Shown one piece after another: positions 27,136 through 55,851 of a stretch of 55,851 nt of DNA. The notes under the pieces were generated by a model. That model made no database searches. It was not told the origin of the DNA and worked only from the letters and a program-made list of their open reading frames with translations. The position numbers and the translations under genes were made by a program. How positions within the stretch are numbered: the stretch's first letter is position 1; each line of letters opens with the position of its first letter. The DNA comes from a candidate division FCPU426 bacterium (lineage in GTDB: Bacteria > Oederibacteriota > Muellerivitia > Muellerivitales > Muellerivitaceae): NCBI GenBank assembly GCA_963796105.1, contig CAWCKJ010000005.1, positions 1-55,851 on the forward strand, in the 5' to 3' direction.

Positions 27136-27137
27136 GC

Positions 27138-27794: not shown

Positions 27795-27820
27795 ACACTA
27801 CAACAACGTGAATTTTTATA

Positions 27821-27850
27821 AAGTCCACGACGGGGACCCGCATTGGACAG
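27821..27850 (+). repeat. 30-bp palindromic site, copy D (AAGTCCACGACGGGGACCCGCATTGGACAG)
   Basis: Matches consensus. Confidence 0.85.
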
Positions 27851-27892
27851 CTAAAAGGTGAAGATTATGCCGATGTTATGGGAGGTAATTAA

Positions 27893-28360: not shown

Positions 28361-28364
28361 TTCA

Positions 28365-28394
28365 TTGTCCACGAAGGGGACCCAAAGTGGATAA
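28365..28394 (+). repeat. 30-bp palindromic site, copy E (TTGTCCACGAAGGGGACCCAAAGTGGATAA)
   Basis: Matches consensus; 4 bp after the stop codon. Confidence 0.88.
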
Positions 28395-37621: not shown

Positions 37622-37645
37622 CCCGAACATATAAGGAGTAACGAG

Positions 37646-38134: not shown

Positions 38135-38146
38135 GGAAGGGAAAAA

Positions 38147-38779
38147 GTGCTTGAGCATAAATTGGGGTTTCGCGGGGCCGCATTGGTTGCCTTTGGCCTT
38201 ATTTGGCTGGGCCTGATTCTATTGCTACTCGTCATTCCTGGCGAAATTATGGAAATGAGACGCGACGTGTCAAAACCAAGGACCCGTTTTTCCGAAGTGG
38301 ACGGCTATTTAAAGGTCGGTTTCGACTTGCTCAGTTCCTACCCGATTGATTCCCCCGACGACATGGAGGACATGAACACCCGCCGGGATGATTTGAACAG
38401 TGATCCGTTTGAGCCGAAAGTGAAGGCTCGGAAAAAGCAACAGGTAGTCCCGGAATTCATCCGGGCTTTGGACGGCCGAAAGGTCATGGTGGAAGGTTTC
38501 ATGATCCCTATGCTCTCGGAGAAGTACCGGGTGTTGTCATTCATCCTCGCCCAAAGCCAGATGACCTGTTGCTTCGGCATCGCCCCCAAGTTGAACCAAT
38601 GGATCGACGTCACGATGGAAAAGGGAAAGTCAACCGAGTGGAAGATGGATGTCCCGATCACGATATTCGGGACTTTAAGCGTGGGCACGAAATACGACCG
38701 GCAAAACAAGGGATGGTGCCTTTACCGGATGGTTTCCGACAAGGTCGGGATTCCATCCGAGAAGGCATGGTTTTATTGA
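38147..38779 (+). CDS. DUF3299-like protein, paralogue 1
   Basis: ALDG.KV..GFMIP..FIL...CCFG..P..NQWI.V. Confidence 0.8.
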   Translation: MLEHKLGFRGAALVAFGLIWLGLILLLLVIPGEIMEMRRDVSKPRTRFSEVDGYLKVGFDLLSSYPIDSPDDMEDMNTRRDDLNSDPFEPKVKARKKQQVVPEFIRALDGRKVMVEGFMIPMLSEKYRVLSFILAQSQMTCCFGIAPKLNQWIDVTMEKGKSTEWKMDVPITIFGTLSVGTKYDRQNKGWCLYRMVSDKVGIPSEKAWFY

Positions 38780-38806
38780 GGCTCAAGCGCGAATGAGGAG
38801 TCAATT

Positions 38807-39430
38807 TTGAAAAATAATTCCCTTAGAAAAAAGTTAGTTTTCAATATTCGGTTAGGGCTTTTGCTGGGGGTGGGTTTAATGATTTCCGCCAATCCCATCA
38901 CGGGCCAACCGGCCGGACCAGCGCCGACGATCTACCCGATCACGGCGGTGGACCTGAAATCCGCCCCCATCACCGTTTATCCCAAACTAGAAGGCCATCC
39001 GTTCGTGACATGGGACACCCTTGCGCATTTCCGCTATGACGCGCCCGAAATCGAGGAGGAGATCGATCCCAGATTGAGGTTGAAGAAAAATAAATTCCCC
39101 GTTCCAGCATTCATCAAGAGATTGGACAGGGTGAATATCGCGGTCGTGGGTTTCATGATTCCCCTGGACACGAACGAGGCCGGGGACAAGGCCACCTCCT
39201 TCATCCTGGCCAGGAGCCAGGCGACCTGCTGTTACGGGATCACCCCCAAAATGAACGAGTGGATGTTCGTGCGCATGGGCGGTGGGATGGACGCCGACGC
39301 TGTGATGGATGTGCCCGTGACGGTCTTCGGCACGCTCTCCGTTGGGGAGAAAAAAAAGGCCGATATGGGCTGGAGCCTTTACCGGATGGTGGCGGACAAG
39401 GTCCTTGCCCCCAAGGAAACCATATGGTGA
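38807..39430 (+). CDS. DUF3299-like protein, paralogue 2
   Basis: Same motif (TCCYG). Confidence 0.8.
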   Translation: MKNNSLRKKLVFNIRLGLLLGVGLMISANPITGQPAGPAPTIYPITAVDLKSAPITVYPKLEGHPFVTWDTLAHFRYDAPEIEEEIDPRLRLKKNKFPVPAFIKRLDRVNIAVVGFMIPLDTNEAGDKATSFILARSQATCCYGITPKMNEWMFVRMGGGMDADAVMDVPVTVFGTLSVGEKKKADMGWSLYRMVADKVLAPKETIW

Positions 39431-39451
39431 ACGGACGGAAAGGTACCTGAC

Positions 39452-40183
39452 ATGAAAGTCTATGTCCGCAACATTTGGCCCGGGAAGAAGAGGGTGAAAG
39501 TTGAGTACCAATCCTCCATCCCCCCGAGGGACTCAAGTTTTTGGGCCATCATTGTTTTTACCGGGGTAGTTGGGTTGGTCATGTTCCTGGTCCTTTTGAA
39601 GGGATCCTATACCCCGTCCATGACCCGATGGTGGAAGGACCAGGCCCACAGGGAGGAAGCCGGGAAAACCTATGCCTTGAACCCGAAGGAACCAAAGAGT
39701 CCGGCCGGATCGGCGGGGTTGAAAATCCCTTACCCTAAAGTCGGGGATTATTTCCAATTGGGTTTCGACACCTTGAGCGGTTTCCCCTCCGGAAAACCGG
39801 CGTTAAATGGCCCTGGGTCGGGCGTCGGCCCAAAAGCCGAAGCTCCGTTTTCAAAAGTCCCGTCCGACATCCGGGCTTTGGACGGACAAAAAATATCGGT
39901 GGTGGGTTTCATGATCCCCATGACAGTGGAGAAAAACAACGCCCGCACCTTCATCCTGGCGCAAAGCCGGGCCACCTGCTGTTACGGCGCGGTTCCAAAC
40001 CTTAACCAGTGGATTTACGTGGACATGGCCCGGGGAAAAACCGCCGAGGCGATCATGGACGTGCCGGTCACGGTTTTCGGCACGTTGAAAGTGGGGACAC
40101 AGTTCGATGAGCGAAGCACCGGTTGGTGCCTTTACCGGATGACGTCCGACAAAGTCGCGTGGCCGAGGAAAGCATGGTTTTGA
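39452..40183 (+). CDS. DUF3299-like protein, paralogue 3
   Basis: Same motif (TCCYG). Confidence 0.8.
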   Translation: MKVYVRNIWPGKKRVKVEYQSSIPPRDSSFWAIIVFTGVVGLVMFLVLLKGSYTPSMTRWWKDQAHREEAGKTYALNPKEPKSPAGSAGLKIPYPKVGDYFQLGFDTLSGFPSGKPALNGPGSGVGPKAEAPFSKVPSDIRALDGQKISVVGFMIPMTVEKNNARTFILAQSRATCCYGAVPNLNQWIYVDMARGKTAEAIMDVPVTVFGTLKVGTQFDERSTGWCLYRMTSDKVAWPRKAWF

Positions 40184-40200
40184 GACTTAAGGGGGATTCA

Positions 40201-40491
40201 TTGGAATTTAAGAAAATTGTTTTTAAATCGTCCCTGGTGGCATTGGCTTTGGTTTTTTTGCTGATCATGACCGGGGAAGGATTTTTCCATAGGCACCACG
40301 GTTCCGAGTCGGAGCGGGATTGCCCCTATTGCCAATGGTGCCATTCGGGGTCCCAAGGCACTGAAGTGTTAATTCGACCAATGCTTTTTCCTGTTTTTAT
40401 TGTTGCTCTACTTTTTATTAAAAAATTTGAAGTCGCTTTTGCAAGTTTCTTTTTCAACTCCGGAAGGTCCCCGCCTCAAAACCTCTTGTAA
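40201..40491 (+). CDS. Second DUF2946/CruR-like leader peptide (RSPP)
   Basis: TTG start after GGGGGA; TM-HRHH..DCPYC-TM-GRSPP. Confidence 0.7.
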   Translation: MEFKKIVFKSSLVALALVFLLIMTGEGFFHRHHGSESERDCPYCQWCHSGSQGTEVLIRPMLFPVFIVALLFIKKFEVAFASFFFNSGRSPPQNLL

Positions 40492-40536
40492 CGAAACATC
40501 AACGGCCTTCACAGGCCGAAATTTCAAGGAGGAAGA

Positions 40537-41625
40537 ATGAAATCATTTATTCGCTTATTTGTTTGTTGTATTACCCTCGTTTTCGCTGTGCTTCCCCTGC
40601 ACGCCCAAACCCGGTCGATCATCTCGAACTTGGCCAATCCGGCCATCGGCATGAGCGCGCTGTTTTTGGCCCAGGCCGCGCCGGATTTGAACACACCCGG
40701 TTCCACCGGGCCAAGTTTCCAGGAAGCGGAAATCAGCGTCATTTCCACCGTGGACCCGCTTTGGACTCTGGCGGGCAACTTCACCTTCGACGCGGAGACC
40801 GGCGTGGCGGAGGAAGCATACGCCACCACCACCGGCATTCCTAACATCCTGATCAAGGTCGGGGAATTTCGCGCGGCTTTCGGGAAGCACGGTATGCTCC
40901 ACACCCATGCCTTCCCCTTCATCCAGGCGCCGCTCATTATGTCTAACAGCGTCGGGGAGGAGGGATACAAGAACGCGGGCCTGGAAGCGGCCTGGATGAC
41001 CCCCCTGCCCTGGTTCTGCGAGCTGACCCTGGGCGGGTATCGGCAGGTAGAGGCCACGCCGGACCATCCCCTCGATTTCAACGGGGGTTCCACCGGCAGC
41101 ATCCCCTACCTCGTCCACCTGAAAAACCTCTTTGACGTGGATGAAAACACGACCATGGAATTGGGCGCGTCCGATTTAACCGGAATGGGGGACGACGGTC
41201 TGCACCACGCGGTTTATGGGGCCGACCTCACTTTCCGAAATGTCCCGCTTCGGCGATCCAACGAGCGGGGATGGATCCTCCAGGGGGAATACATCAAAAA
41301 GGTTTCATACAACGACAGCGTCTATAACCAGGAATCGGACGGGTGGTACGGTTCATTCCAGTACCGCTGGGGACAGGAATGGTGGTCCGGCGTCCGGGTG
41401 GAGGAGGCATTCAATAGTGTCTCCGACGTTGCCGACAACCCAACGGACACCTACCTCTCTGGCCATGTTCAGCGGGCCTCCGCCAATATCGCCTGGCTTC
41501 CCTCGGAATTCTCCGAGATGAAACTGGAATACGGCTTGACTCGGAACGACGCGGGCACAGTGGACAATCGGGTGATGCTCCAATTCAACTACATCATCGG
41601 TTTCCACCCGCCACATGCGTACTAA
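40537..41625 (+). CDS. Outer-membrane metal-uptake beta-barrel
   Basis: NPAIG, EEAY, FGK..LHTH.FPF, PSEFS, terminal GFHPPHAY. Confidence 0.8.
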   Translation: MKSFIRLFVCCITLVFAVLPLHAQTRSIISNLANPAIGMSALFLAQAAPDLNTPGSTGPSFQEAEISVISTVDPLWTLAGNFTFDAETGVAEEAYATTTGIPNILIKVGEFRAAFGKHGMLHTHAFPFIQAPLIMSNSVGEEGYKNAGLEAAWMTPLPWFCELTLGGYRQVEATPDHPLDFNGGSTGSIPYLVHLKNLFDVDENTTMELGASDLTGMGDDGLHHAVYGADLTFRNVPLRRSNERGWILQGEYIKKVSYNDSVYNQESDGWYGSFQYRWGQEWWSGVRVEEAFNSVSDVADNPTDTYLSGHVQRASANIAWLPSEFSEMKLEYGLTRNDAGTVDNRVMLQFNYIIGFHPPHAY

Positions 41626-41671
41626 AAAGGAGCCGCAAATGTTTAATACCAACAACTTTCAGGAGGATTTC

Positions 41672-42586
41672 ATGAAATCGTCGATGAAGCTATTTTTGAG
41701 TTTTGCCTTTTGTCTCTTCACCATGCCCGCCTTCGCGGATTTGAAGGTGGCGACGTCTCTATCGGATCTGGCTTCGGTAGCCCAATCCGTGGGAGGCAAG
41801 CATGTGACGGCCATTAGTCTTTGCAAGGGTTACGAGGATCCGCACTTCGTGCCGGCCAAGCCCAGCCTAATGAAGGCCATTCAGGACGCCGACGTCTTCG
41901 TGTCGGTCGGCCTAGAGCTGGATGGGGGCTGGCTGCCGCTGGTCATCCCGGGGAGCCGAAACCCTAAAATCCAACCTGGTGCCAAGGGCTTTATTGACGC
42001 CTCCGAGGGGATTGAGGTGCTGGACAAGCCCGTGGGCACGGTCAGCCGCGCCGAGGGCGATATCCATCCCCTGGGCAACCCGCATTACTATTCCGATCCG
42101 GGGAACCTGGAAATTGTCGCCGACCATTTGGCCAACATTTTTAGGGAATTGGATCCGGCGAACGCCGACGAGTACCAGGCCAACGCCAAGGCCTTCGACG
42201 CGAAAATGGAGAAGGCCATCAAGGGCTGGAAGGCCCAATTGAAGCCCTATAAGGGCGCCAAGCTCGTGACCTACCACGAGAACTTCAAATACTTTACCGA
42301 GCGGTTCGGTTTGAAGCTCTTCGGGACCGTGGAACCCAAGCCCGGTATTCCACCCAACCCCCGGTACTTATCCGAAACCGCCGAGGCCATGAAGTCGGCC
42401 GGTGTCAAAGTGGTGTTGTACCAGCCCTATTACGAGGCCGACGAGGCTCAAGCGCTGGCTAAAAAGGCGGGCGCCACGGCCTACGAAATTCCTAACGAAG
42501 TTGGCGGGGTGCCGGAAGCCAAGGATGTTTTTTCCAAGTTCGACTTCATCGTGTCGATCTTGGCCAAAGCCCTAGGGGGTAATTAA
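41672..42586 (+). CDS. ZnuA/TroA-family metal ABC substrate-binding protein
   Basis: DPHF, GDIHPLGNPHY, YH, EPKPG. Confidence 0.92.
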   Translation: MKSSMKLFLSFAFCLFTMPAFADLKVATSLSDLASVAQSVGGKHVTAISLCKGYEDPHFVPAKPSLMKAIQDADVFVSVGLELDGGWLPLVIPGSRNPKIQPGAKGFIDASEGIEVLDKPVGTVSRAEGDIHPLGNPHYYSDPGNLEIVADHLANIFRELDPANADEYQANAKAFDAKMEKAIKGWKAQLKPYKGAKLVTYHENFKYFTERFGLKLFGTVEPKPGIPPNPRYLSETAEAMKSAGVKVVLYQPYYEADEAQALAKKAGATAYEIPNEVGGVPEAKDVFSKFDFIVSILAKALGGN

Positions 42587-42591
42587 GAGTC

Positions 42592-43431
42592 ATGTCCAAC
42601 TTCATCGCCGTGATGGGTCTTCCGATCCTGGCCTGTGTTTTATTGGTCCTGATCCACCCAACCTTAGGGACTCATGTCTTGGCCCGGGGCGTCATTTTCG
42701 TGGATCTGGCCCTGGCCCAAATCGCCGCCATGGGGCAAAGCGTGGCTTTCCTAATGGGGGCCGAGCCCCATGACCCGAGCACTTATTATTGGTCTTTCGT
42801 CCTCACCTTGCTGGGCGCGGCGCTTTTCAGTTTCCTGTGGGACCGGAATCATTCGGTCCTGCAGGAAGCCTTTATCGGTATCGCCTTTTCGCTTGCCACC
42901 GCGGCTTCCCTCCTGCTTTTGGCCAACGCGCCGCACGGCGCCGAGCACGTGCAGCACTCTCTCAGTGGGGAAGCCTTAGGCTGGGTGACGGCAAAGGACA
43001 TCGGGTTGATGGCTTTCTTTTATAGCATCGTGGGATTGTTTCTTTATTGGAACCGAAAAACTCTCACCCTCTGTTCCACCAACCCCCATGAAGCCAACCG
43101 CCAGGGTATTTCGGTGAAACTTTGGGATTTCCTTTTTTACGCTGCTTTTGGGCTGGTTGTCACCAGCTCCGTGAAAATCAGCGGCGTATTGGCTGTTTTT
43201 TCCTATTTGATCGTTCCTCTGGTTTGCGCTACCCTTTTGGGGTTTAAGGGCCCCACACGTCTTTTCTGGGCCTGGGGAATCGGCTTTTTGGTTTCAATAT
43301 TGGGCGCCTGGTTGTCCTATACCCGGGACCTTCCGATGGGGGCCTCCATTGTTTGCGTTTTCGGGCTGGCGGTTATCGTGATTTCCATCGCGACCCGGAT
43401 GAAAAACGCCGATTACGGGAGGCTGAAATAA
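42592..43431 (+). CDS. ZnuB-family metal ABC permease
   Basis: RGVIFVDLALAQ, EAFIG, GVLAVFSYLIVP. Confidence 0.9.
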   Translation: MSNFIAVMGLPILACVLLVLIHPTLGTHVLARGVIFVDLALAQIAAMGQSVAFLMGAEPHDPSTYYWSFVLTLLGAALFSFLWDRNHSVLQEAFIGIAFSLATAASLLLLANAPHGAEHVQHSLSGEALGWVTAKDIGLMAFFYSIVGLFLYWNRKTLTLCSTNPHEANRQGISVKLWDFLFYAAFGLVVTSSVKISGVLAVFSYLIVPLVCATLLGFKGPTRLFWAWGIGFLVSILGAWLSYTRDLPMGASIVCVFGLAVIVISIATRMKNADYGRLK

Positions 43432-44359: not shown

Positions 44360-44369
44360 GGCCAAAAAG

Positions 44370-44399
44370 TTGTCCATTCCGGGGACCCTTCGTGAACAA
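44370..44399 (+). repeat. 30-bp palindromic site, copy H (TTGTCCATTCCGGGGACCCTTCGTGAACAA)
   Basis: Matches consensus in the same orientation; 73 bp upstream of cas1. Confidence 0.85.
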
Positions 44400-44472
44400 C
44401 GAAAATGATGGATAATGGTAGCCGGGCATCTTCCGTACAAAGATGGTTTACAAAATTTGGGGGGCAGATCAC

Positions 44473-45483
44473 ATGGACTTGCTTATTGATACTTACGGTA
44501 CCAAGATCGGCGTAAATGGTGAGCGCATCGTCCTTTCTTTTCCGAAAGTTAAAGAGAAAAAAGAATACCCAATCCACAGACTGGAGAAAATAGTCATACT
44601 GCGGCCGGCCTCGCTCACGACTCACGCGGTTCAGCTCGCGATTGAGCACGATGTTGATATCGTCTATCTCGGTTCTTTTGGCAAGCCCATCGGAAGACTA
44701 TTTTCAAGCGAACCAAAAGGGTTGGCGAGTCTTCGTAAAGCGCAACTGGAAGCGTCAACTTCGCTTGAGCGATCGTTCAAAATCGCAAAAGAATTAGTGC
44801 GGGGCAAATGCGCTAATCAGCTCGATCTACTCCGATATCTCGCGTACCGATATAAAAAGGATGTGGGGACCGAACTCTTACAAGCGCAGACCCTTTTTGA
44901 TGTCTTGGACAATGTCCCGTGTTCGGAGAAAGGCAAGGAGCAACTCCTTGGTACGGAAGGATACATCGCGGACAAATATTTCAGCGGGTTAAAAAAATTC
45001 TATAGATTCCCGGGCCGAAAACCGCAAGGCAGGGACCAGTTTAACAGCGTACTGAATTATGGTTACGGCATCCTTTACAATGAAGTCGAACGGGCATGCC
45101 TTTACGTCGGTCTTGATCCATATCTCGGCCTCTACCACAGTGAACGCTATGGTAAGCCTGCCCTCGTGCTCGATCTTGTCGAAGAATTCCGCGTACCAAT
45201 CGTCGACTCGGTGCTTTTCCCGCTTTTCATAGAAAAGAAACTGAGCCAACGGAAATATTTTGAAAAAACCGCGGTCGGGCAATATCTGTTATCGCCTGAG
45301 GGAAAAAGCGTTGTGGTGGGGGCGATCATGAGGCGGTTGAATGAAACGACGGCATGGCGGGGGAAACAATATACTCTTAAGCAGATCATAGATAACCAGA
45401 TTAGGGCGTTGGCACGTCACTTTGTCGAAAAGGAGGACAAGTACAACCCGTTTCGTGCGGAAAAACTTTTTTCGATATCATGA
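44473..45483 (+). CDS. cas1: CRISPR-associated integrase Cas1
   Basis: LLGTEG (Glu), FNSVLNYGYGILY, GLDPYLGLYH (His), LVLDLVEEFR.PIVD; catalytic set appears intact. Confidence 0.95.
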   Translation: MDLLIDTYGTKIGVNGERIVLSFPKVKEKKEYPIHRLEKIVILRPASLTTHAVQLAIEHDVDIVYLGSFGKPIGRLFSSEPKGLASLRKAQLEASTSLERSFKIAKELVRGKCANQLDLLRYLAYRYKKDVGTELLQAQTLFDVLDNVPCSEKGKEQLLGTEGYIADKYFSGLKKFYRFPGRKPQGRDQFNSVLNYGYGILYNEVERACLYVGLDPYLGLYHSERYGKPALVLDLVEEFRVPIVDSVLFPLFIEKKLSQRKYFEKTAVGQYLLSPEGKSVVVGAIMRRLNETTAWRGKQYTLKQIIDNQIRALARHFVEKEDKYNPFRAEKLFSIS

Positions 45484-45815
45484 ACAATTTCAATGCCATC
45501 ACCCTAGTATCGTGGGAAACGCGTGACTGGCGGCATCGGGACAAGGCGGTTCTGTGGTGCAAGAATTATGGTCTCAAGCCGATTTTACGGAATATGTATA
45601 TCGGAAAATTGTATTCAAAAGAACGGGACAAACTCGAGAATAAATTCAAGGGGACATTCGCAAAGAAGACCGAAAAGTTTTTTATCAGCACGCTCTGTCG
45701 GTCGTGCTTTGAAAATTCGGTTTTCAGTGGTACGCTAAGTTCTATGAAAGATGATGTCGACATTGAAACTGCGTTTGAACTTATCCAAATCAGGCCGAAT
45801 TCGGCGAAACGTTGA
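45480..45815 (+). CDS. cas2: Divergent Cas2
   Basis: Overlaps the cas1 stop; pattern LVSWET..RDKAVLWCKNYGL..ILRNMYIG.L and LCRSC. The canonical YD is replaced by WE. Confidence 0.7.
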   Translation: MNNFNAITLVSWETRDWRHRDKAVLWCKNYGLKPILRNMYIGKLYSKERDKLENKFKGTFAKKTEKFFISTLCRSCFENSVFSGTLSSMKDDVDIETAFELIQIRPNSAKR

Positions 45816-45835
45816 AAAATTGCAATAATTGCAGG

Positions 45836-45874
45836 CTCCTGCACATGCCTGTCGCAAAAAGGATGGTGTGCAAC
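45836..45874 (+). CRISPR. CRISPR-like repeat, copy 1 (CTCCTGCACATGCCTGTCGCAAAAAGGATGGTGTGCAAC)
   Basis: 20 bp after cas2; TGCAC/GTGCA terminal dyad; ends in TGCAAC like type V-F-style repeats. No normal-length spacer follows. Confidence 0.6.
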
Positions 45875-46360
45875 AACGGTGGTGATGTAGGGGCGTATCA
45901 ATATTGCGGCCCTGTAGCTAATATTATGAGATCCTCACATTCCATCAAAACTTCTCTCTCACCAACGTATACACCTACCCCAAACAGTAATAACTTTTTA
46001 GACATGAAATATATTTCATCAGAAAATACTCCGAGTCCAACACCGTCGCCTAGTGCAACATCTTCAGATATCATGGTTCCCGTTGTGGCAGCTCCAAACA
46101 TCTCCCGTAATGGTGCGCCAATTCATCTCCACTTTAACTTGGTAAGTTCCGCGTCGGTACGTCTGGCCATTTACAACTTAATGGGGGAGTTGATTTTGGA
46201 AAAATCCATCAATGGAAATATTGGCCTCAATGATTTGGTTTGGAACCTGAAAAACCGATCAAAAATAAGTGTGGCCAGCGGACTTTACATCTACTCAATC
46301 CTAATCGACGATGGTAATAATCGAAGTCAGTTAAAGGGTAAGTTGGTTGTTATTCGTTGA
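45875..46360 (+). pseudogene. 3' fragment of a secreted protein (DVGAYQY motif, Pro/Thr linker, FlgD/Ig-like C-terminal domain)
   Basis: Starts mid-protein exactly at the repeat end; AAPN..IYNLMGE..WNLKN..VASGLYIY. Confidence 0.75.
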
Positions 46361-46422
46361 TGAGTTTCTCATTTAACAACAATTAAGTGTCCTACCTGAA
46401 ATATTTTACTTACAAATAAAAT

Positions 46423-48606
46423 TCATAACGTGCCGTTTATGGCTTTTGCCCCGAGTGTATCTAAGCTTTGCATTTCCCTTGGAGATATCTGGAGGAAGGA
46501 ATCCATTTTTGCCGCTTTAAGGAATGCTTCTTTTGCCTCGGCATAATGTCCGAACTTCGCGTAAATAAGAGCCAAGTCATAATAAATAAGCCCATTAGAT
46601 CCATCTTGAATCGCTTTTTGAAATACCGGGAGCGCCATTTCATATTGGTAGTTTAAACAATAAAGGTGACCAAGTTTGCACCAGTAGTAAAACCGCAGGA
46701 ATGGATTTTCTTGAAAAATAGATTCTCGATCCCTGAGGTATTTAATAATACAGTCGTAGGGTTGACGTGTAGGTTGATTGAATTGAAGGTAATCCGATTC
46801 CTGAAAAGTCCTGTCAGCTTCTTCCCAACTATCTAGGATGCTTTGGTTTTTAGGAGTTAATGGAATAGCGACAAAAAGGCTATTATCTGCGGGAATATGA
46901 CTTTTAATTGTGTATAAATTTGCATCGGGGAACAAACGGGATAATAGAGGCTGGGCCCATTCGTCGGTTGTGATGGCGGCCCAGCTTGCTTTATTTGGAG
47001 TTAGGTCTTGGTTTACGAGGGTATTAAAAGCATAAGTCCCAAAGGTCATATAACATGGGAACCAATAACTTGTGAAATAATAGGATATTACCCGGCCAGA
47101 GGCGTCGGTAACAGGCGTGAAACCCGGATTGTCGCGATCAAGGCAAAAGTCGGAATAAACTCTTCCGGGACCTTGGGTTTGTCCCTGTTTGATAAGATTA
47201 TTGCAAATCCATACTGTTGAATTAGAGGCGGAATATTCCTTTTCGGCGGCGGCCATGCTTTTATTTAAATTGGTCCAGTCCAAGAAAATAGATATGAAAA
47301 ATAATCCCAGGACAAAAGGAACCCTTGCATGCACCCATGGAAATTCTTGCCAAAGGACGGAGAATCCCAAGGCTGCAACAACGATAAACAGGGGCATCAA
47401 GGTAGCCACGTGATACCAGTTTGCGTTGTGGATGAAGAGGCATGGAACAAATAAAACAATGAAACCAATGAAAAGCCATTTGACTTCGGGAAGATTGCGT
47501 ATAAGGATTGTTTCTACAGAACCTAGCAGGAATAGACTTCCCAAAATCGGGTTTAAAAACCCACCCCACTGCGGTTTATATCCGAATTGTCTAGTGGCCC
47601 CGGTCCAAAGAAAACTTGTAAGGTAATTAATATTTTGACTTAAATCCCAAAGGATAGTTCGTTCTGGAAGGTTCCCTGGATGGAAAATTCCCTTAATGTA
47701 ATCACCGAAACCTTCCCTTAAAGCTTCGATTGCTAACGGAAGGACGGTGAGGAAAACGGCTGTAAGTACAAGCGAAATAAGACCTTTTCCCTTTGACCCT
47801 GAATGCTTGCTGATTATCCATACTGCTGGAAAAAGCCATAGAACAACTAGGGGCCAAGCGTAGTATGTGTAAAAACCCGCCCCCAGGCAGACTCCCAAAG
47901 CAAGAGCGAAAATTATTCGATTTCGTGTAAGTTTCGCCTTCGTGTACTTGGCGAGAAGCCAAAAGGCCAGGGATTCCCAAAATACCATAAGAACAGCGTT
48001 GTGAGAAAAACGCCCCAGGAACACAGGCCAAAATCCTACGGCCAATAAGATGAGGCAAACAAAAGATATAGACCGGGAAGTTACTTCTCGAAAGGATTCG
48101 TAAAAAAATAATATGCTGATGAAAGACAGAAGGGCAGGTACAAGCCAAAGGTTAAAGACGGACACGCCCGCGAACTTGAATACACAGGCCAACAACCAGA
48201 TGTAAAAAGGAGGCATTTGACTTGAATAGTAAAAAGCGTCCCAAGACCAATGGTTGTTCATGTGAATGGCGTTGTAGGCGTTGATGACCTCATCAGGAAT
48301 GGGAAAGGTTAAATAGGAAGTTAATTTATAGAAACGCACGGCCAGGGCGAGAACTAGAGCCAAGGCCACCATCCAGGACGCCGGGGTAAAAAATTCTCTC
48401 GTATAAATTGGAGCTTCCTCGGGCGTAGAAGGAGTTTGGTTTTTTACATAAAACCAACCCATGATTCCTAAACCCAGAAGGCCTATTGCGATTTTGAGGG
48501 GCCACGTCAAGGGTGAATAAGCTAGTAGTGAGTTGAGCCCAACTAAGAGCAGGAAGCAGTTGAAAGGTCTGGTAAAAAAAGGAATCATTAAAAGCCACCT
48601 ATTCAA
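46423..48606 (-). CDS. GT-C (ArnT/PMT, family 39-like) glycosyltransferase with C-terminal TPR
   Basis: RFYKL..PDE, PPFY, multiple TMs, GFYTY, terminal TPRs. Confidence 0.8.
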   Translation of the reverse strand: MNRWLLMIPFFTRPFNCFLLLVGLNSLLAYSPLTWPLKIAIGLLGLGIMGWFYVKNQTPSTPEEAPIYTREFFTPASWMVALALVLALAVRFYKLTSYLTFPIPDEVINAYNAIHMNNHWSWDAFYYSSQMPPFYIWLLACVFKFAGVSVFNLWLVPALLSFISILFFYESFREVTSRSISFVCLILLAVGFWPVFLGRFSHNAVLMVFWESLAFWLLAKYTKAKLTRNRIIFALALGVCLGAGFYTYYAWPLVVLWLFPAVWIISKHSGSKGKGLISLVLTAVFLTVLPLAIEALREGFGDYIKGIFHPGNLPERTILWDLSQNINYLTSFLWTGATRQFGYKPQWGGFLNPILGSLFLLGSVETILIRNLPEVKWLFIGFIVLFVPCLFIHNANWYHVATLMPLFIVVAALGFSVLWQEFPWVHARVPFVLGLFFISIFLDWTNLNKSMAAAEKEYSASNSTVWICNNLIKQGQTQGPGRVYSDFCLDRDNPGFTPVTDASGRVISYYFTSYWFPCYMTFGTYAFNTLVNQDLTPNKASWAAITTDEWAQPLLSRLFPDANLYTIKSHIPADNSLFVAIPLTPKNQSILDSWEEADRTFQESDYLQFNQPTRQPYDCIIKYLRDRESIFQENPFLRFYYWCKLGHLYCLNYQYEMALPVFQKAIQDGSNGLIYYDLALIYAKFGHYAEAKEAFLKAAKMDSFLQISPREMQSLDTLGAKAINGTL

Positions 48607-48679
48607 TAAAGCTGATGAATAATTGTTCAGTAATTATATTAGTAAATTCGATTTTAACATTAGGAGTTATATTTATTCG

Positions 48680-49375
48680 ATCTCCTAGCCGGGTGGCGAT
48701 CTCCCGGGCCACCCAAGGGAAGGGAAAAGACCCTTCCCATTGCGCTAACGGCTTGTTTTGCTGTTAGCACAACCACCCATTTGACTAACGTCCAAGGGCG
48801 ATAAAAATCATCGAACCACCCTCACCGCCTTGTGGGCGGTGACGAGGTGTCCATCCCTAGCCCGGTGGGAGATCCCCCCGGAAGCAAATAGCTTATTGCT
48901 ATTTGCACAACCATAGTGCGGTCATCCGCCTTGTGGGCGTTCGACCAGGTGCCCCCACATCGAGCGACAACGTGGAAGAAAACCGAATCCGGGGGCGGCG
49001 TCACCAACTCTTATTGAGTTGGCATTATCAACCTTCACCCCTCTTTACCGAATCTTTGTATTAATGATTCGGCACAACCAAGTCTCGTGTTTCGCCTTGA
49101 AGTCTCAACACAGGGGTTGTGGGTGAGGGCGGATAAACGCCGTTGGGAACGGTCAGCGCCTTTCCAACAGGCCAGGCCGGGCCTCGTTCCTCGTCTTATC
49201 CGGCCTAAAACATGGCCTGCCGGAATCCCAATAATGCTTAAACAACGACGCACTTCCCCCCGGACTCAATTTTCCATAGCCAACACCTCTTATCGCTCCG
49301 TTTGCGCCCCCAAGGATTTTGTGAGGGGGCGCACCCGGAGGGTGCTCTCTCCTCTAACAACGAAAAGGAGTAAAA
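48680..49375. other. Hairpin-dense non-coding region with internal repeats and an attC-like site at 49072-49122
   Basis: At least eight stems; repeated CCTAGCC.GGTGG..ATC, GCACAACCA (three times), CCGCCTTGTGGGCG (twice). Confidence 0.7.
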
Positions 49376-49414
49376 CTCCTGCACATGCCTGTCGCAAAAA
49401 GGATGGTGTGCAAC
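49376..49414 (+). CRISPR. CRISPR-like repeat, copy 2 (identical to 45836-45874)
   Basis: 39/39 identity with copy 1. Confidence 0.6.
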
Positions 49415-49891
49415 CGAATAACATTCGAATCTTTGGATGAACTTAGGGATATTTTTTGGGTTTCAGATTTTGAGATGCGGTCAGGAATTACACCTTCAAT
49501 TAAGGCGGAATACCTGGAAGGGAAGCTGAATAAGGAAAGATGGCGCTCTAATGGGGCCAATCCAAATCCAAAAGGAAGAAGAACACCTGATGGATATTTT
49601 GAGGCAGACATTGAAGGTCGAAGAGTCTCTTTTACACTTGAACTTGAGAACCATCATTACAACGACACTATTCTTCAAAGAATGATCGATAATTTAAAGA
49701 ATGGCTTTCCTCGTGCCCTCAAACTAATCGTTTCCGCCACTCCTGGAAATGCGGTCCGGATGATCCGTTCCCTTCAAACTAGGATTAAACCCGACGAACA
49801 GCAACAATGGTTCGTTTCCGATTTTGAGAGGGTAACCACCAAACCGTTTAAAAAATGCTGGCACCAATTGAATAAACCATTGGCGGATTAG
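49415..49891 (+). pseudogene. 3' fragment of a replication-relaxation (Replic_Relax-like, PD-(D/E)xK) gene
   Basis: RTPDGYF...LELEN; the N-terminal wHTH and His motif expected before RITFE are missing; begins at the repeat end. Confidence 0.6.
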
Positions 49892-49922
49892 TCGAAATAT
49901 CGAAAAACGGCCCTTGAAATAG

Positions 49923-49940
49923 TGTCAACCATAGGCGACA
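49923..49940. promoter_or_regulatory. Imperfect palindrome TGTCAACCATAGGCGACA, putative TA operator
   Basis: Lies between a TTGAAA -35-like box and the RBS of the toxin gene. Confidence 0.5.
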
Positions 49941-49957
49941 ATGAAAAGGAGAGGTAA

Positions 49958-50308
49958 TTGGAAACAACACCTTTTGAATTAAAGGATTATGAAACACCGG
50001 ATGGGCGGTGTCCTTACCAGGAATGGTATTCGGAGTTAATTAAAAAAGACCTAAGGTCTGCAACCGCTTTAGAAAATAGGGTTAGGCGGTTAGAAAATGG
50101 CTTGCTTGGGGATTATGACGACGTTCAGGACGGTATCCTTGAACTCAGAATTCATGTAGGCCAAGGTTTTCGCATATATGTCCGTAGGATTGGTAGAACC
50201 ATGATGCTTTTGCTTTCCGGCGGGGAAAAGAAAACCCAGGACCAAGATGTTAAAAAAGCCAAGGAATATTGGAACGAATTTAAAAGTAGAAATAAAGGAG
50301 TAAAGTAA
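49958..50308 (+). CDS. RelE/ParE-superfamily addiction-module toxin
   Basis: G.CPYQEW..L, RVRRLENGLLGD, ELRIHVG.GFRIY, LLSGG.KKTQ..D. Confidence 0.9.
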   Translation: METTPFELKDYETPDGRCPYQEWYSELIKKDLRSATALENRVRRLENGLLGDYDDVQDGILELRIHVGQGFRIYVRRIGRTMMLLLSGGEKKTQDQDVKKAKEYWNEFKSRNKGVK

Positions 50309-50607
50309 TGAAAGGCATTAGAGACCATAAATCAGCGATCATTGAACATTTAAAAACCAATGAGAACTTCCGAAAAGCTTACCTAAATGAAGCCCTTAAC
50401 GAGGATGAACCTGCGGTTGTTCTTTCTATGCTTCGCGACATCGTAGATGCGACTAGGGGGTTCACAAAACTTGCAAAAGAAACAGGCTTGGCTAGGCAAA
50501 GTCTTTATAAAGTCTTGTCTGAAAAAGGGAATCCTGAATTTGGAAGTGTTTGGAAGATCGTCCGCATATTGCGGAAAAAGAATCAAGCTTTGGTGAATGC
50601 TCGGTAA
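50308..50607 (+). CDS. Addiction-module HTH antitoxin
   Basis: AYLNEAL..LRDIVDA.RGFTKLAKETGL.RQSLYKVLS..GNP.F. Confidence 0.9.
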   Translation: MKGIRDHKSAIIEHLKTNENFRKAYLNEALNEDEPAVVLSMLRDIVDATRGFTKLAKETGLARQSLYKVLSEKGNPEFGSVWKIVRILRKKNQALVNAR

Positions 50608-50611
50608 AATT

Positions 50612-52636
50612 TCATTTACCACCGTGTGGAAGGCTTTCTAAAATGTTTTGAGCCGAAGGATTGCTCGGATCGTTTTTCAAGACACGTTCCAAGCATAGTC
50701 TGGCTTCGTCGTACCGTTTAGCTAAGTAATAAAAGACGCCGAGTTTGTAGTAAAGGTCGAAATATTTCCCGCCTGATAGATTTAATGCTTCCAAGAAAAA
50801 TGCCTCGGCAGTTTGAGGATGGTTTTCCAATAAAAAAAAAGTCCCCATATTTGAAATCCCGATGGGATAATTCGCCCGCGTGTAAAAACCCATCAATAAA
50901 AAATCCCATATAGTGGGTTCGGGAAGTTTGATGAATTCAGTTGCCCTTTCCAGGACCTGATTCTGGATATTGTATTCGGCCATAATTCTGGAATCGTCAA
51001 GGGTCGGTACTTGAGGCGCATAACCTTTTTTCAAATAAATTACGGTATTCTCATCCAAGTAAACCGGTCGCCAATCACTGTTATTTTGGAGATCAGCGAC
51101 CCAACTCGTGGATATAGCTGGATTGAAAAATAGAATATTTGCGGAATTTTGGTCCGCCAAGGATGTTATTTTTCCTGTGTACTGGGCTGAAATGTATTCT
51201 GTGAATAGTTTCTCGCCCATTACCTCCAGACGGCCATCGATAAATACCTTTTGAGGACCTTTCCAGTCCAACCAGCCTCCCGGATTCAAAGCATTTAATA
51301 TCCTTCCATCTAAATGGTTTTGAATAAGGAAATCCGTGGCCCGAACGGGTTGACTTTCATCGTTCACCCCAAGGCCGAAGCGTTCGGTTCGGCGGTCGTC
51401 CACATAATAGGCGTTTGTGATAACCCGCAAACCTAGACCCGAAAGTAGAGTTATTAGGATCAACGCAACCCATGATCTGGATAGAATCCCTTCTGTTATT
51501 TTGCGTAACCATGCCCATTCCAGGTCCTTCAAACAAGCGGCCGTAATGGGCAGGCAAATGAGGATGAAAAGCGGAATGTTCCGTACGGCGTTTGCGGATA
51601 AATAAAAGAAAATGGCGACCAGGAAAAACTCGTGAATTTTCCGTTTCTTCCAGGTGATCAAGATCAAAAACAATAAAAGGAAACTGAATAGCTTACAACC
51701 CCATAACTGGGCAACCGGCATAATGGGAATGTCGTAATGGACCCAAGGGGACATGAATTCATTTATATTTGAATGGAAAAGTTTAGTGTGAAGTGTCTGC
51801 CAAAGTTGGAACGGGAATAATATCCCTCGGAAAAAATATGGGTTTAACAGGCATAAAACCATAGCCAGGCCCGAAAACCGCACCAACTTCGAATCTGCCC
51901 GGCGTTGATGGAAGATACCAGAAACCAAAAAACCAACCATCAATCCCCAACCCAGGATAAATAAACCTTCCATGTTGGCCCAAACAACCTGGAGGATTGG
52001 AAGAAGGAATAGAAAATCCCTTTTCCGGGCCGTTCTTTGCTCCAATGTCCAAAGCATAACACTCATAAGCAACCAACTAATGATTTCGGGCCGGACCTGG
52101 AAACGAATTTCACATTCCCATATAGCCCATGCAAACAATAGTGTGGATATCCATGTAGGCGCACCGGTCAATCGAAGACGTGCCCATAGAAATGAAAAGA
52201 CCGCGATTATTAAAACAACATTAAATAATGTAAGTAGCGGATAGCTGCCGGAAATAAAGAGCAGGTAAAGAACGACTTGATAAAGCCAATGGCCATCAAC
52301 ATAATCGTGATCGGGAACTGTGTAGGTGAAGGTATCCTTTGCGGGGAAACTATGATTTTGAAGTATCCACTGGCCACTCCTTAGGTGAAAACCCAAATCC
52401 AAGTCTTGAATGGTATGTGCGCTTAATAGGGCCAGTAGGAGGAAACAAGAAATAAGTGCCCAGGACCAAGGATTAATAAAAAAAGATCGGATTGAGGCCG
52501 AAAGAGGACGGGTTTGTAGGGAAGATTGAGTTGACATTAGGTGGATTATAACAAACGTTCCATATTTCAAATGGAGAAGAGATATTGAACTAGGGAGACC
52601 AAACAACAACCTTCTAAAAGCCCGATTTAAATCCAT
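50612..52636 (-). CDS. Polytopic GT-C-like membrane protein with C-terminal TPR (start probably ~52537)
   Basis: DLDLGFHLRSGQWI, RPE, WANMEG, NPY, I.EF.SP, FIDGRLE. Confidence 0.8.
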   Translation of the reverse strand: MDLNRAFRRLLFGLPSSISLLHLKYGTFVIIHLMSTQSSLQTRPLSASIRSFFINPWSWALISCFLLLALLSAHTIQDLDLGFHLRSGQWILQNHSFPAKDTFTYTVPDHDYVDGHWLYQVVLYLLFISGSYPLLTLFNVVLIIAVFSFLWARLRLTGAPTWISTLLFAWAIWECEIRFQVRPEIISWLLMSVMLWTLEQRTARKRDFLFLLPILQVVWANMEGLFILGWGLMVGFLVSGIFHQRRADSKLVRFSGLAMVLCLLNPYFFRGILFPFQLWQTLHTKLFHSNINEFMSPWVHYDIPIMPVAQLWGCKLFSFLLLFLILITWKKRKIHEFFLVAIFFYLSANAVRNIPLFILICLPITAACLKDLEWAWLRKITEGILSRSWVALILITLLSGLGLRVITNAYYVDDRRTERFGLGVNDESQPVRATDFLIQNHLDGRILNALNPGGWLDWKGPQKVFIDGRLEVMGEKLFTEYISAQYTGKITSLADQNSANILFFNPAISTSWVADLQNNSDWRPVYLDENTVIYLKKGYAPQVPTLDDSRIMAEYNIQNQVLERATEFIKLPEPTIWDFLLMGFYTRANYPIGISNMGTFFLLENHPQTAEAFFLEALNLSGGKYFDLYYKLGVFYYLAKRYDEARLCLERVLKNDPSNPSAQNILESLPHGGK

Positions 52637-52798
52637 CTATTATCGATATCGGGTCAATTTGAAAGAACATGTTATGATTTTGGGGATTAAAAAAGAATCA
52701 ACCTTTGGTTCACGCTCGGTAAAATTCCATAAGAGGGTTAGGAAGCCTAAATATGTTGCTATTTCGATATAGCGTTTAACCCGTGAAACCGAATTTTA

Positions 52799-52980
52799 CT
52801 TGCCTATACGGAAAGCGCATCTTAAGTTGGATTCTACTGGTGCACTCATGACACAAGTCTCCCCCTCTGAAAGAGGGGGAATAAGGGGAAGTTAGCCTTT
52901 TATCAACGACAAATACCCCCCCACCCCCCTTTTCAAAGGGGGGCAAAGAATTCGTGAGATGCACTTTCCGTATAGGCATG
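52799..52980. mobile_element. 182-bp MITE with 26-bp terminal inverted repeats and 8-bp target-site duplication
   Basis: CTTGCCTATACGGAAAGCGCATCTTA / TGAGATGCACTTTCCGTATAGGCATG (3 mismatches); GAATTTTA flanks both sides (52791-52798, 52981-52988). Confidence 0.88.
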
Positions 52981-53060
52981 GAATTTTAATATAGACAATG
53001 AATATTCATTGATGTATTAACCGTAGTGATTTTCATCACTTTTATTTTGGTGGTTTTCAA

Positions 53061-53270
53061 ATGGACGAATTCATATTTGAACACGCACCTACAGGAAAAA
53101 GATCAAAAATTAAGGCAAATAACTCAGATATAGCCATGATCCTTTGTTTCCAGATAAATGGCTGGTTACCAGGTGAAATCCTTTATCTTGGTCGTGCTTC
53201 CACTGTCGAAAACCTCTCCTTTTTAAAATACAGAGACGAACTCCATTACATCCCCGGTGGTCGTTTCTAA
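53061..53270 (+). CDS. Hypothetical protein
   Basis: 69-aa ORF with a GGTGG RBS-like sequence. Confidence 0.4.
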   Translation: MDEFIFEHAPTGKRSKIKANNSDIAMILCFQINGWLPGEILYLGRASTVENLSFLKYRDELHYIPGGRF

Positions 53271-53493
53271 AAAATTGCCTAAATTCGGGGAATCTTTTTT
53301 TTCAAGAAAGATACCCTTTTGAAGCGTAAAAACAGGAGAAGTAATATAATTAGATGACAAATTAAGTTGGGATCATTAGGGCCAACCTCAGTAACTGATA
53401 AATCCATAAAAAAATATAACGAGACGGGGAATAAAACCGCGCATACCACCACTATATAGCAGAGATAAAGTCGTTTCTGTTTGGAGGCCACTC

Positions 53494-54588
53494 ATGGGAA
53501 TCAAGAATTTTTGGACAGCGGGAATTTTATTAATAGTGTTTGTCTTGCCATTGGCTTGCCAACGTTACCTTCCTACCGCACCCAAACCAAAGGGAATAAC
53601 CACACCCAATGGTGGTGTGGTATCGACTATTGCGGGGTCTGTTAGTGCGTTCGCTAACGGAACGGGAACTGGTGCAGCTTTCAATTGGCCCGCTGGTATA
53701 GCTGTCGATGCCTCTGATAATTTGTACATCGCAGATGCTGGCAATCAATTAATCCGGTTAATAACAACCGGAGCCGTGGTTTCGACTATAGCTGGTCAAG
53801 TTGGGGTTACTGGTTCTATGAACGCAACTGGAACTTCAGCATCTTTCTTTGATCCAAGCGGAGTCGCCGTTGATACCTCGGGAAATATATACGTTGCGGA
53901 TTACGCCAACTCACTTATTCGTAAAATCACATCGGGTGGCGTGGTTTCGACCCTGGCGGGTCAAGTTGGGGTTACAGGAGCTACTAATGCGACGGGGACT
54001 TCTGCGTCATTTAATTATCCTGAAGGAGTCGCGGTGGACACCTCTGGAAATGTATATGTCGCTGACACTGGTAATAATCTGATCCGGGTTATCTCTCCGG
54101 GGGGTGTTGTGTCAACTTTGGCGGGACAGGCTGGTGTTACAGGTGCCACTAACGCAACGGGCACTTCAGCATCTTTCAATAATCCCTATGGGGTTGCGGT
54201 TGACACTTCCGGAAATGTGTACGTCGCGGACACTGGTAATAATTTGATCCGGGTTATCACCTCAGGGGGTGTTGTGTCAACTTTGGCGGGATCAGGATCA
54301 GTTGGTTCGGCCAATGGAACAGGATCAGCTGCGTCGTTTAATAATCCTTATGGGGTCGCTGTTGACTCTTCCGGAAATGTATACGTCGCGGACACTTACA
54401 ATAATCTAATCCGGAAAGTAACTCTTGGGGGCGTTGTTACTACTTTGGCTGGATCAGGATCCATAGGGTCCGCAAATGGCACGGGAACGGCAGCTTCATT
54501 CTTTGCTCCTAATGGAGTCGCTGTTGACGTTTCCGGTGTTGTTTTCGTTGCAGATAGCGGCAACTACATAATCCGAGAAATTCAATAG
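53494..54588 (+). CDS. NHL-repeat beta-propeller lipoprotein
   Basis: Lipobox PLAC; six F..P.GVAVD.SGNVYVAD..N..IR repeats. Confidence 0.92.
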   Translation: MGIKNFWTAGILLIVFVLPLACQRYLPTAPKPKGITTPNGGVVSTIAGSVSAFANGTGTGAAFNWPAGIAVDASDNLYIADAGNQLIRLITTGAVVSTIAGQVGVTGSMNATGTSASFFDPSGVAVDTSGNIYVADYANSLIRKITSGGVVSTLAGQVGVTGATNATGTSASFNYPEGVAVDTSGNVYVADTGNNLIRVISPGGVVSTLAGQAGVTGATNATGTSASFNNPYGVAVDTSGNVYVADTGNNLIRVITSGGVVSTLAGSGSVGSANGTGSAASFNNPYGVAVDSSGNVYVADTYNNLIRKVTLGGVVTTLAGSGSIGSANGTGTAASFFAPNGVAVDVSGVVFVADSGNYIIREIQ

Positions 54589-54990
54589 TTATGTTTTAAG
54601 GTGTTTAAGATATTTAATCGTGAAACAGGTAACATTATTAATCCGATAACTTTTAACAAATACTCTTCCGCCGTAAAACTGCACGATAATTGACTTTTTT
54701 GCTTTATTGCGTGTAAAACATTCTGCCTAAATTGCACTTATTATGGCTATTTTTATTTTTTTCGAAAAATTAAACGGTTAACTCAAGTCATAATTTGCTC
54801 CTCCATAACAATCCGTAATAATTACTAGAAGAATGTTCCTTTTTTATTTATTAAAAATAGAAACGTTAAAACTAAATTTTCCTTTTTTGTTTTGATTTTA
54901 TTTTTTTAAGGACTAGTATTTTTCCCTGGCAGTATCTTTTTCAGCAACGTCTGACATTTGTAAGTTGATTTATAGTGGTTGGAGGCAGTG

Positions 54991-55851
54991 ATGCGCAGAG
55001 ATTATTATTTTTTTATTTCTGTTTTTTCACTCATAACATTTTTTGGTTTAAGCTCTTTAGCTTATTGTCAAAATAGTGGCGCGGTATCCACTCTTGCGGG
55101 GTCGGCAGGGGTTAGTGCTTTCGCGGACGGAACAGGGAACGCCGCTGCATTTAATTGGCCCTTTGAATTAACGGTCGATTCGTCCAGTAATATTTACATT
55201 GCTGATTCCGGCAATCAAATAATCCGGAAAATTACTTCTGGGGTCGTGGTTACCACTTTTGCAGGCCAAGTCGGAATTATAGGTTCAACCAACGGAACGG
55301 GAACTGCCGCTTCCTTCTTTAACCCTTCAGGAATCTCCTTCGATTCGGCCGGAAATATTTATGTAGCGGACACGCTCAACAATCTGATTAGAGAAATTAC
55401 CCCTGGTGGTGTAGTGACAACCCTGGCAGGGTCGGCGGGTGTCACGGGTTCAACCAATGGGACTGGATCAGCCGCTTCTTTTAATAACCCTTATGGAGTT
55501 GCCGTTGATTCTAACGGCAATGTCTACGTCGCGGACACTCTCAACAATCTGATTAGGGAAATTACCCCTGGTGGTGTAGTGACAACCCTGGCAGGGTCGG
55601 CGGGTGTCACGGGTTCAACCAATGGGACTGGATCAGCTGCTTCTTTTAATAACCCTTATGGAGTTGCCGTTGATTCTAACGGCAATGTCTACGTCGCGGA
55701 CACTGGAAATAACCTTATACGGGAAATTGCCCCAGGGGGTGTTGTGTCTACTCTGGTGGGGTCTGGGTCTGCTGGATCATCCAATGGGACGGGAATTGCA
55801 GCGTCGTTTAATGGACCTTATGGAGTCGCGGTTGGTACTTCCGGAAATGTA
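54991..55851 (+). CDS. Second NHL-repeat protein, running off the window end
   Basis: GGAGG RBS, ATG at 54991, open frame with the same NHL repeats. Confidence 0.88.
   Translation, partial: MRRDYYFFISVFSLITFFGLSSLAYCQNSGAVSTLAGSAGVSAFADGTGNAAAFNWPFELTVDSSSNIYIADSGNQIIRKITSGVVVTTFAGQVGIIGSTNGTGTAASFFNPSGISFDSAGNIYVADTLNNLIREITPGGVVTTLAGSAGVTGSTNGTGSAASFNNPYGVAVDSNGNVYVADTLNNLIREITPGGVVTTLAGSAGVTGSTNGTGSAASFNNPYGVAVDSNGNVYVADTGNNLIREIAPGGVVSTLVGSGSAGSSNGTGIAASFNGPYGVAVGTSGNV

Follow-up and report, generated by a model that had tools for sequence, protein, structure and literature searches.

The 55,851-nucleotide stretch analyzed here (the window; contig CAWCKJ010000005.1 of a candidate division FCPU426 bacterium) carries an intact cas1 and a divergent cas2, followed by two identical 37-bp repeats that enclose 3,503 bp of gene-bearing DNA. 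Our preferred explanation, to which we give a probability of roughly three in four, is that this Cas1–Cas2 pair works without a length ruler and integrates long DNA fragments with duplication of the repeat. A preliminary description of the window, made from its letters alone, had proposed such a capture of randomly cut multikilobase DNA. The proposal is supported by the anatomy of arrays in four genomes, by a clade of related Cas1 proteins, by the symmetry of the insert ends, by a source match, and by the lack of a protospacer-adjacent motif (PAM). The enzyme, which we infer to be Cas1–Cas2, would take a long DNA fragment produced by random breakage and attach each of its ends to one edge of the 37-bp repeat. 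This joining would duplicate the repeat, as CRISPR adaptation does, minus the limit on length, and would give rise to arrays of gene-bearing inserts. The inserts would derive from broken chromosomal DNA and from incoming DNA of close relatives.

The cas1–cas2 Locus and Its Two Repeats

The cas1 gene (44443..45483, plus strand; likely start 44473) matches Pfam Cas_Cas1 (E 3e-68) and TIGR00287 (E 2e-74). Residues E172, H232, D244, and E247 are invariant in 40/40 aligned homologues, which were chosen out of at least 120 among the matches listed; E172, H232, and E247 form the Cas1 catalytic triad. The adjoining cas2 (45480..45815, plus strand) is divergent, with E values of 0.014 in Pfam and 1.2e-7 for PADLOC Cas2b, and a profile built from 14 Cas2 homologues retrieves solved Cas2 chains (best E 7.7e-5). 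Its W12 stands in place of the Y of the usual YD motif, its acidic residue is not conserved, and its CxxC is invariant. Throughout the clade described below, the W is invariant at the place of the YD tyrosine of type V-F relatives, and it is followed by no conserved acidic residue. An intact cas1 beside a divergent cas2, as first described, is therefore confirmed by the family matches, the invariant metal-binding residues, and the Cas2 profile. Equally sound was the statement that the window holds no effector, Cas4, or PolB gene: none of these families was found among the 49 open reading frames (ORFs) scanned. The term "effector-less" applies to the locus and not to the cell, because the genome holds three ordinary CRISPR-Cas loci elsewhere. 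These complete loci are of type V-B, type I with Cas7, Cas3, and Cas4, and type I-E, and the repeats of their arrays are unrelated to the 37-bp repeat.

Directly after cas2 lies a 22-bp leader (45816..45837, plus strand) that ends in GGCT, and the same or similar four bases precede the first repeats in the clade loci. Only first repeats have a leader; its end is absent ahead of later repeats across the 64 copies compared. Repeat 1 (45838..45874, plus strand) has an inner TGCACA/TGTGCA dyad and ends in TGCAAC, and repeat 2 (49378..49414, plus strand) is identical to it. The repeat had initially been read as 39 bp, with two identical copies 3,501 bp apart and no third copy. Identical 39-bp stretches do start at 45836 and 49376, separated by 3,501 bp, and a third copy was not found in the window, so that no closing repeat lies between repeat 2 and the contig end. 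The length did not hold, since the unit conserved among the 64 copies is 37 bp and the two further bases of the match are chance; this gives the leader a length of 22 bp and the insert one of 3,503 bp.

The DNA after each repeat begins in the middle of a gene, as had been noticed. Insert 1 (45875..49377) opens on a 5′-truncated secreted-protein tail of 161 codons (45875..46360, plus strand), identified by ORF and paralogue comparison. This tail has 32 codons of open frame upstream vs. 258–2,580 in the 14 best paralogues of the genome. The insert then contains a whole gene for a membrane glycosyltransferase-like protein (46423..48606, minus strand; 727 aa, TPR, PMT_2 E 1e-8), in agreement with the preliminary description. 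Its gene families are typical of the genus. No close source of insert 1 was found among the 31 genomes searched (its own and 30 of the family); the best matches, in its own and a same-genus genome, are 65–69% over the large gene. The noncoding end of the insert (48967-49377) is part of a repeated element that has 82–94% matches in related genomes and on contigs C4 and C14.

The DNA after repeat 2 (49415..55851, to the contig end) starts inside a relaxase-like gene (49415..49891, plus strand). Over the first 4,851 bp, this DNA reproduces C6:319259-324108, on another contig of the same genome, at 99.9% identity, with 4 differences in 4,852 bp, and the match begins at the first base after the repeat. 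Contigs C6, C16, and C7 extend upstream with an intact relaxase-like gene and are homologous to one another. The intact ORF on C6 has 269 aa and lies downstream of a coupling-protein gene; it is cut at codon 112 in the window, which retains residues 112–269. The earlier reading of this tail as Replic_Relax-like finds an echo in language-model neighbors of the 269-aa ORF, 17–29% of whose members carry Replic_Relax, but not in Pfam, where the ORF has no match. The stretch shared by C5 (the window) and C6 could reflect a genuine duplication, no shorter than 6.4 kb, or two alleles of one locus; the two cannot be told apart, because both contigs end inside it.

Some candidate features of the repeats were set aside. 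An in-frame fusion from an ATG within the repeat holds for both window copies, yet the 64 copies show long frames in all three phases, and we ascribe it to chance. A scan for promoters and terminators gave no excess over shuffled sequences, and the repeat does not fold better than its shuffles (z −1.35).

Arrays and Insert Ends in Related Genomes

The window is the entire contig C5 of a 4.98-Mb genome in 16 contigs (G000). The 37-bp repeat has 64 copies in four related genomes, 14 of them in G000 and, with up to three mismatches allowed, 27 in G041, 13 in G022, and 10 in G002; at the same threshold, genome G023 has two and G011 none. The copies in G000 stand alone or in same-strand groups 1.3–6.9 kb apart, and the longest run among the genomes has 11 same-strand repeats over 53 kb. 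We measured the gaps between same-strand repeats less than 30 kb apart in the four genomes (n = 45); they range from 30 to 26,097 bp with a median of 1,856 bp, and just two are of 38 bp or less (30 and 38 bp, both in G022). In one G041 array (G041:C3:385264-393142), two repeats of the G022/G000 variant lie within a series of the local one, an arrangement that resembles the capture of a piece of a foreign array.

The insert ends carry a common preference. Read inward from the repeat, they have G at position 3 in 4/117 and T at position 5 in 61/117 (64 left and 53 right ends). The deviations on the two sides are correlated (r 0.62), a value that 0/3,000 random offsets equaled, and a control in which one end was reversed without complementing gave r −0.08. 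When each genome in turn was left out of the training and used as the test, the junction ranked 1st, 2nd, 3rd, and 1st of 280 offsets. The three scored ends of the window fall at the 65th, 93rd, and 96th percentiles. A two-fold symmetric end preference is the trace that would be expected of a symmetric two-site integrase, unlike an assembler or a one-ended element.

Where sources could be traced, they were the host's own DNA, other arrays, and the cas1 gene itself, and they were cut at arbitrary points: twice in the middle of cas1 and at three different points of one repeated element. Across 13 traceable cuts, we found no PAM or shared flanking motif. An 885-bp insert of G041 matches end to end, at 100% identity and in reverse orientation, the inside of a 971-bp insert of G002. 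The shorter of these two (G041:C3:399838-400722 against G002:C4:58850-59820) lacks exactly 43 bp at each end, which may be chance or the footprint of symmetric trimming. For three G041 stretches, mostly no source was found in five genomes (its own and four related ones). Some inserts contain insertion sequence (IS) elements, and some overlap other inserts of the same genome.

The inserts are also biased in orientation. Among those longer than 500 bp, 32 of 40 code mainly in the direction of the cas genes (p 2e-4, kinship ignored), and the sense:antisense counts point the same way in all four genomes (17:4, 4:1, 6:1, and 5:2). Genes cut directly after a repeat are 22 sense and 3 antisense vs. 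665 and 733 at random sites; genes cut before a repeat are 13 to 8. This bias suggests a filter on which inserts are kept, in favor of co-directional genes; the array would then be an integron-like gene store.

A Cas1 Clade and the Proposed Movement of the Module

Cas1 homologues at 57–72% identity belong, where named, mostly to Patescibacteria. Their loci keep the same plan: a related 37-bp repeat follows cas2 and a short leader, whose final bases are GGCT or a near variant of it. There are eight repeats at L014 (gaps of 140–4,007 bp), three at L017, and two at L015. Not one of the 32 clade loci has an ordinary array, although many lie on short contigs, and the six with at least two repeats have gaps of at least 140 bp. 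The 60 control loci (Cas1 below 40% identity), in comparison, comprise 30 with ordinary arrays, 2 ambiguous ones, and 28 without a repeat family. Two automatic "long-gap" labels were rejected: L074 is an unevenly sampled ordinary array, and the three-copy repeat at L110 is not CRISPR-like. From 180 neighboring ORFs of at least 170 aa, 8 overlapping or duplicate ones were dropped and 172 scanned, 161 of them from 21 clade loci. None of these 161 belongs to an effector, Cas4, or PolB family, and 14 that were unassigned were rechecked in PADLOC. The homologues lack known effectors among these ORFs and, where two or more repeats are present, have them widely spaced, two points that the preliminary description had proposed to check; they are not conventional type V systems. 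At the deepest-branching clade member, an 892-aa ORF without a Pfam or PADLOC family follows the first repeat (L058:2353-5028); it may be cargo or a partner.

In a quick Cas1 tree of 94 rows, the clade has an SH-like approximate likelihood ratio (SH-aLRT) support of 99 and stands with L063/L064/L068/L069 and L073/L077 on an open fork. L064 and L068 are type V-F loci (cas1–cas2–cas4–cas12f) with 37-bp repeats ending in TGCAAC. We infer that the clade descends from a type V-F-like adaptation module after loss of cas4 and cas12f. A Cas1 profile ranks the CRISPR Cas1 chains 4n06 and 7cr6 above 6opm, which we take to be a casposase; the quick tree held no casposase. No clade member was found in viral contigs, phages, or plasmids, where the best identity was ∼33%. 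A search of 400 further genomes from the phylum of G042 gave no match at E 1e-70, a sample that is uninformative on distribution. The same applies to a degenerate repeat pattern with 0 matches in five Patescibacteria-type genomes, some of which have known repeats. A literature search outside subscription journals and supplements returned no description of such arrays in the text available.

The module (44369/44371-45874; 1.5 kb) recurs at 97–98% identity with differing flanks in L007, L008, L009, and L011 and is 5′-truncated in L010. Its left boundary is a 30-bp dyad site of 11-8-11 bp (44370..44399, plus strand), and in five other copies, module identity starts at 44369-44371. The left arm of the dyad varies among module copies, whereas its core and right arm are invariant, as after a crossover within the site. 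The dyad family has 42 sites genome-wide vs. none in one shuffled 1.6-Mb contig. Window sites lie at 26002, 27138, 27821, 28365, and 44370; those from 26002 to 28365 separate single, mostly same-strand genes in cassette-like fashion. The 8-bp core is asymmetric in this family, and the 26002-28365 group lies just downstream of a conjugation gene cluster. Dyads are dense in G041, G002, and G022, where the module and arrays sit among same-strand dyads and units of dyad and repeat without cas genes exist. In two such mini units (G002:C4:58773-58849 and G022:C23:3917-4021), the repeat follows the dyad within 10–40 bp, one of them with a leader; they are possibly nonautonomous array starters. No PF00589 tyrosine recombinase is encoded on the window's contig (36 matches genome-wide). 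In this host family, the arrangement of these sites suggests that the module itself moves as a cassette between dyads by way of a putative recombinase.

At L049 and at every Patescibacteria locus, no dyad precedes cas1. L013, L014, and L017 begin just after the 3′ end of a tRNA gene, and at L018, L050, L052, L057, and L060, cas1 lies head to head with a recombinase gene. The recombinase is Xer-like at L018, L050, and L052, where a short stretch in the gap to cas1 looks like the central part of the repeat.

The copied DNA after repeat 2 includes a RelE/ParE-type bacterial toxin–antitoxin pair (49958..50607, plus strand). On C6, the host's type V-B locus (L129:4342-11734; Cas12b, a Cas4–Cas1 fusion, and 14 repeats) lies ∼2.5 kb upstream of the start of that DNA. 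In the window, a block of higher G+C content (35655-43431) between two dyad sites carries an ABC transporter, three DUF3299 paralogues, and a ZnuA/ABC-3 metal uptake set.

Alternative Explanations and Known Systems

Several observations weigh against capture by a ruler-less integrase. No read or independent contig spans the window's own junctions, and the four genomes are related, so that their junctions count as only partly independent. Site by site, the end preference is weak: the first junction of the window reaches only the 65th percentile, and 31 Patescibacteria-type junctions lie ∼2 standard deviations above background without being the top offset. For most inserts, the genomes searched yielded no source, and contiguity at both ends is clean for one insert only; a second, derived from cas1, is possibly part of a longer piece. 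The only whole gene in the window's insert is antisense, contrary to the general bias. Moreover, 12 of the 14 repeats in the window's own genome lie away from an intact cas1–cas2 (two of the 12 beside cas fragments), and the placement of the clade beside type V-F is an unsupported fork of an unfinished quick tree. The flank after the last repeat varies among arrays, and G041 has one inverted repeat pair. Given these differing flanks, the repeats away from an intact cas1–cas2, and the inverted pair, some gaps may be rearrangements rather than captures.

That last possibility can be extended to a full alternative, in which the same Cas1–Cas2 mainly joins repeat edges to breaks in its own chromosome; the gaps would then be deletions, inversions, and duplications, and the repeat a roaming recombination end. 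The own-genome DNA after repeat 2, the varying terminal flanks, the inverted G041 pair, the leaderless orphan arrays, and the inserts that overlap others of the same genome would all fit. Nevertheless, we consider it unlikely as the main process: for most tested G041 inserts, neither G041 nor four related genomes contain a second copy, one insert is common end to end to two genomes, and runs of up to 11 same-strand repeats are hard to build from deletion and inversion alone. It involves the same chemistry as long-fragment capture and probably contributes alongside it. The preliminary description had also offered a Cas1-driven element whose end is the repeat. In its fuller form, this would be a casposon-like insertion sequence with the repeat as its right end and the dyad at 44370 as its left, the extra repeats being leftovers of one-ended jumps. 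The sharp boundaries of the 1.5-kb module at 97–98% identity in five other contexts speak for such a transposon, as do outer module ends that match at 6/8 bases as an inverted pair and the position of L013, L014, and L017 just after a tRNA gene, as in casposons (PMC6977970). It fits less well with the rest and seems improbable to us. Later repeats lack the leader and any upstream module sequence, and the dyad is a separate, 42-copy genome-wide site that L049 and all Patescibacteria loci lack. No target duplication surrounds the module, PolB is absent, and both insert ends share a single symmetric preference.

Chimeric assembly, with unrelated contigs joined through the 37-bp repeat or through spacer–protospacer matches, had been raised as a serious concern. 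It draws on the fact that C5 and C6 both end inside a stretch with 4 differences in 4,852 bp and on the public sequencing runs, 20 of which contained a small share of the region and none half of it; four covered the module and repeat, none the window's insert, and no RNA run was listed as containing the region. Contigs from other runs, which are separate assemblies though possibly not independent of the assembled samples, diverge from the window exactly at the repeat edges (45874/45875 and 49378/49414) into unrelated DNA. Those of 329–1,834 bp each contain a single repeat between hundreds of unrelated bases, and one reproduces a G041 junction, with the repeat and 202 bp of the insert at zero mismatches. 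In one run, the bare repeat had a depth of 79 vs. 6 for cas1. With the layout recurring in distant Patescibacteria and in genomes that were assembled separately, and with the symmetric end preference, this account is much weakened and now very improbable in general, yet no run with this strain closes the case for the window itself. We regard as equally far-fetched a decayed ordinary array, in which short spacers were replaced or expanded by mobile elements or the repeats serve another host Cas system in trans. The type V-B, type I, and type I-E loci of the host, the two G022 gaps of 30 and 38 bp, and the IS elements in inserts could be read in its favor. However, the host's three ordinary arrays use unrelated repeats, the 37-bp repeats are near-identical and cas1 intact throughout the clade, and inserts begin at the first base past the repeat, often midgene, with no remnant of a short spacer.

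Compared with known systems, the locus resembles CRISPR-Cas in having cas1 with intact metal-binding residues and cas2, and a leader with a conserved end followed by direct repeats within the usual 25–40 bp. It differs in having no cognate effector module, either in the window or, for known families, in the clade-locus ORFs of at least 170 aa, and no near-constant spacers of tens of bases. Type V-F (Cas12f/Cas14b) loci are among the nearest sampled Cas1 relatives (35–37% identity; L063, L064, and L068) and share the cas1–cas2 order, the Cas2 CxxC, and 37-bp repeats that open on a TGCA motif and close with TGCAAC, with 16/37 bases in common. Unlike them, the module has no cas4, cas12f, or gap the size of a trans-activating CRISPR RNA gene (the leader being 22 bp), and its Cas2 lacks the YD motif; cas12f and cas4 beside cas1–cas2 are absent from the clade loci and present in L064 and L068. 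The gaps are 35–39 bp in type V-F and 30 bp to 26 kb here.

A fixed spacer length is regarded as built into the Cas1–Cas2 architecture. The likely joining of two 3′ ends to the edges of one repeat, which is thereby duplicated, resembles canonical acquisition in types I-D and I-E. According to PMC5896167, the type I-D pair without Cas4 makes no PAM selection and takes mostly host DNA; loss of Cas4 shifts the modal length by 1 bp (36 vs. 35), with no strand bias. In our system, insert lengths cover three orders of magnitude, and the inserts retained are biased in gene orientation. Because Cas4 loss in type I-D shifts length by ∼1 bp (PMC5896167), it does not explain kilobase inserts. An altered Cas2 may instead no longer thread one short duplex between two Cas1 sites, so that distant ends would be held while the middle is looped out. 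The proposed role of Cas2, like any benefit to the host, is presumptive.

Casposons have PolB, terminal inverted repeats, and 14–15 bp duplications (PMC6977970). They share with our system a Cas1-family enzyme that integrates both ends of a long DNA and duplicates its target, and the tRNA-adjacent position of some Patescibacteria loci. The system would handle long DNA in the manner of a casposase, minus PolB and terminal repeats (PMC6977970 and PMC8987985). It has free, nonrepeated insert ends, a fixed 37-bp repeat as target, and Cas2. PolB was found neither in the window ORFs nor in the 161 ORFs of 21 clade loci. Inserts share a weak end bias in place of terminal inverted repeats, the module ends match at 6/8 bases, and the flanks are not duplicated. 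In integrons, the tyrosine recombinase IntI lies beside an array of co-oriented accessory genes whose cassettes carry their own attC. The likeness here is in outcome only, with an integrase beside mostly co-oriented accessory genes separated by repeated sites; the enzyme is Cas1–Cas2 rather than IntI, and the units would be randomly cut fragments with truncated edge genes and no attC of their own. The contig has no IntI-type (PF00589) gene, and inserts end midgene, in a comparison that did not include attC models.

If kilobase insertion at one 37-bp site is true, it would show how the length ruler of Cas1–Cas2 arises and is lost. It would also be the proposed casposase-to-CRISPR transition (PMC6977970) run backward in a living system, and an extra route of gene acquisition and genome rearrangement. 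CRISPR finders miss such arrays because the repeats are too far apart. The 1.5-kb module points to a two-protein, site-specific integrase of long DNA that would need no special donor ends. On balance, and by a narrow lead over doubt, we think that a CRISPR integrase lineage has left immunity for ruler-less general gene capture: from ultra-small to large-genome soil bacteria, it would stack broken DNA of whatever kind, tens of bases to tens of kilobases long and without end sequences or a PAM, at a 37-bp site, and the resulting integron-like store of expressed foreign genes may itself spread as a cassette.

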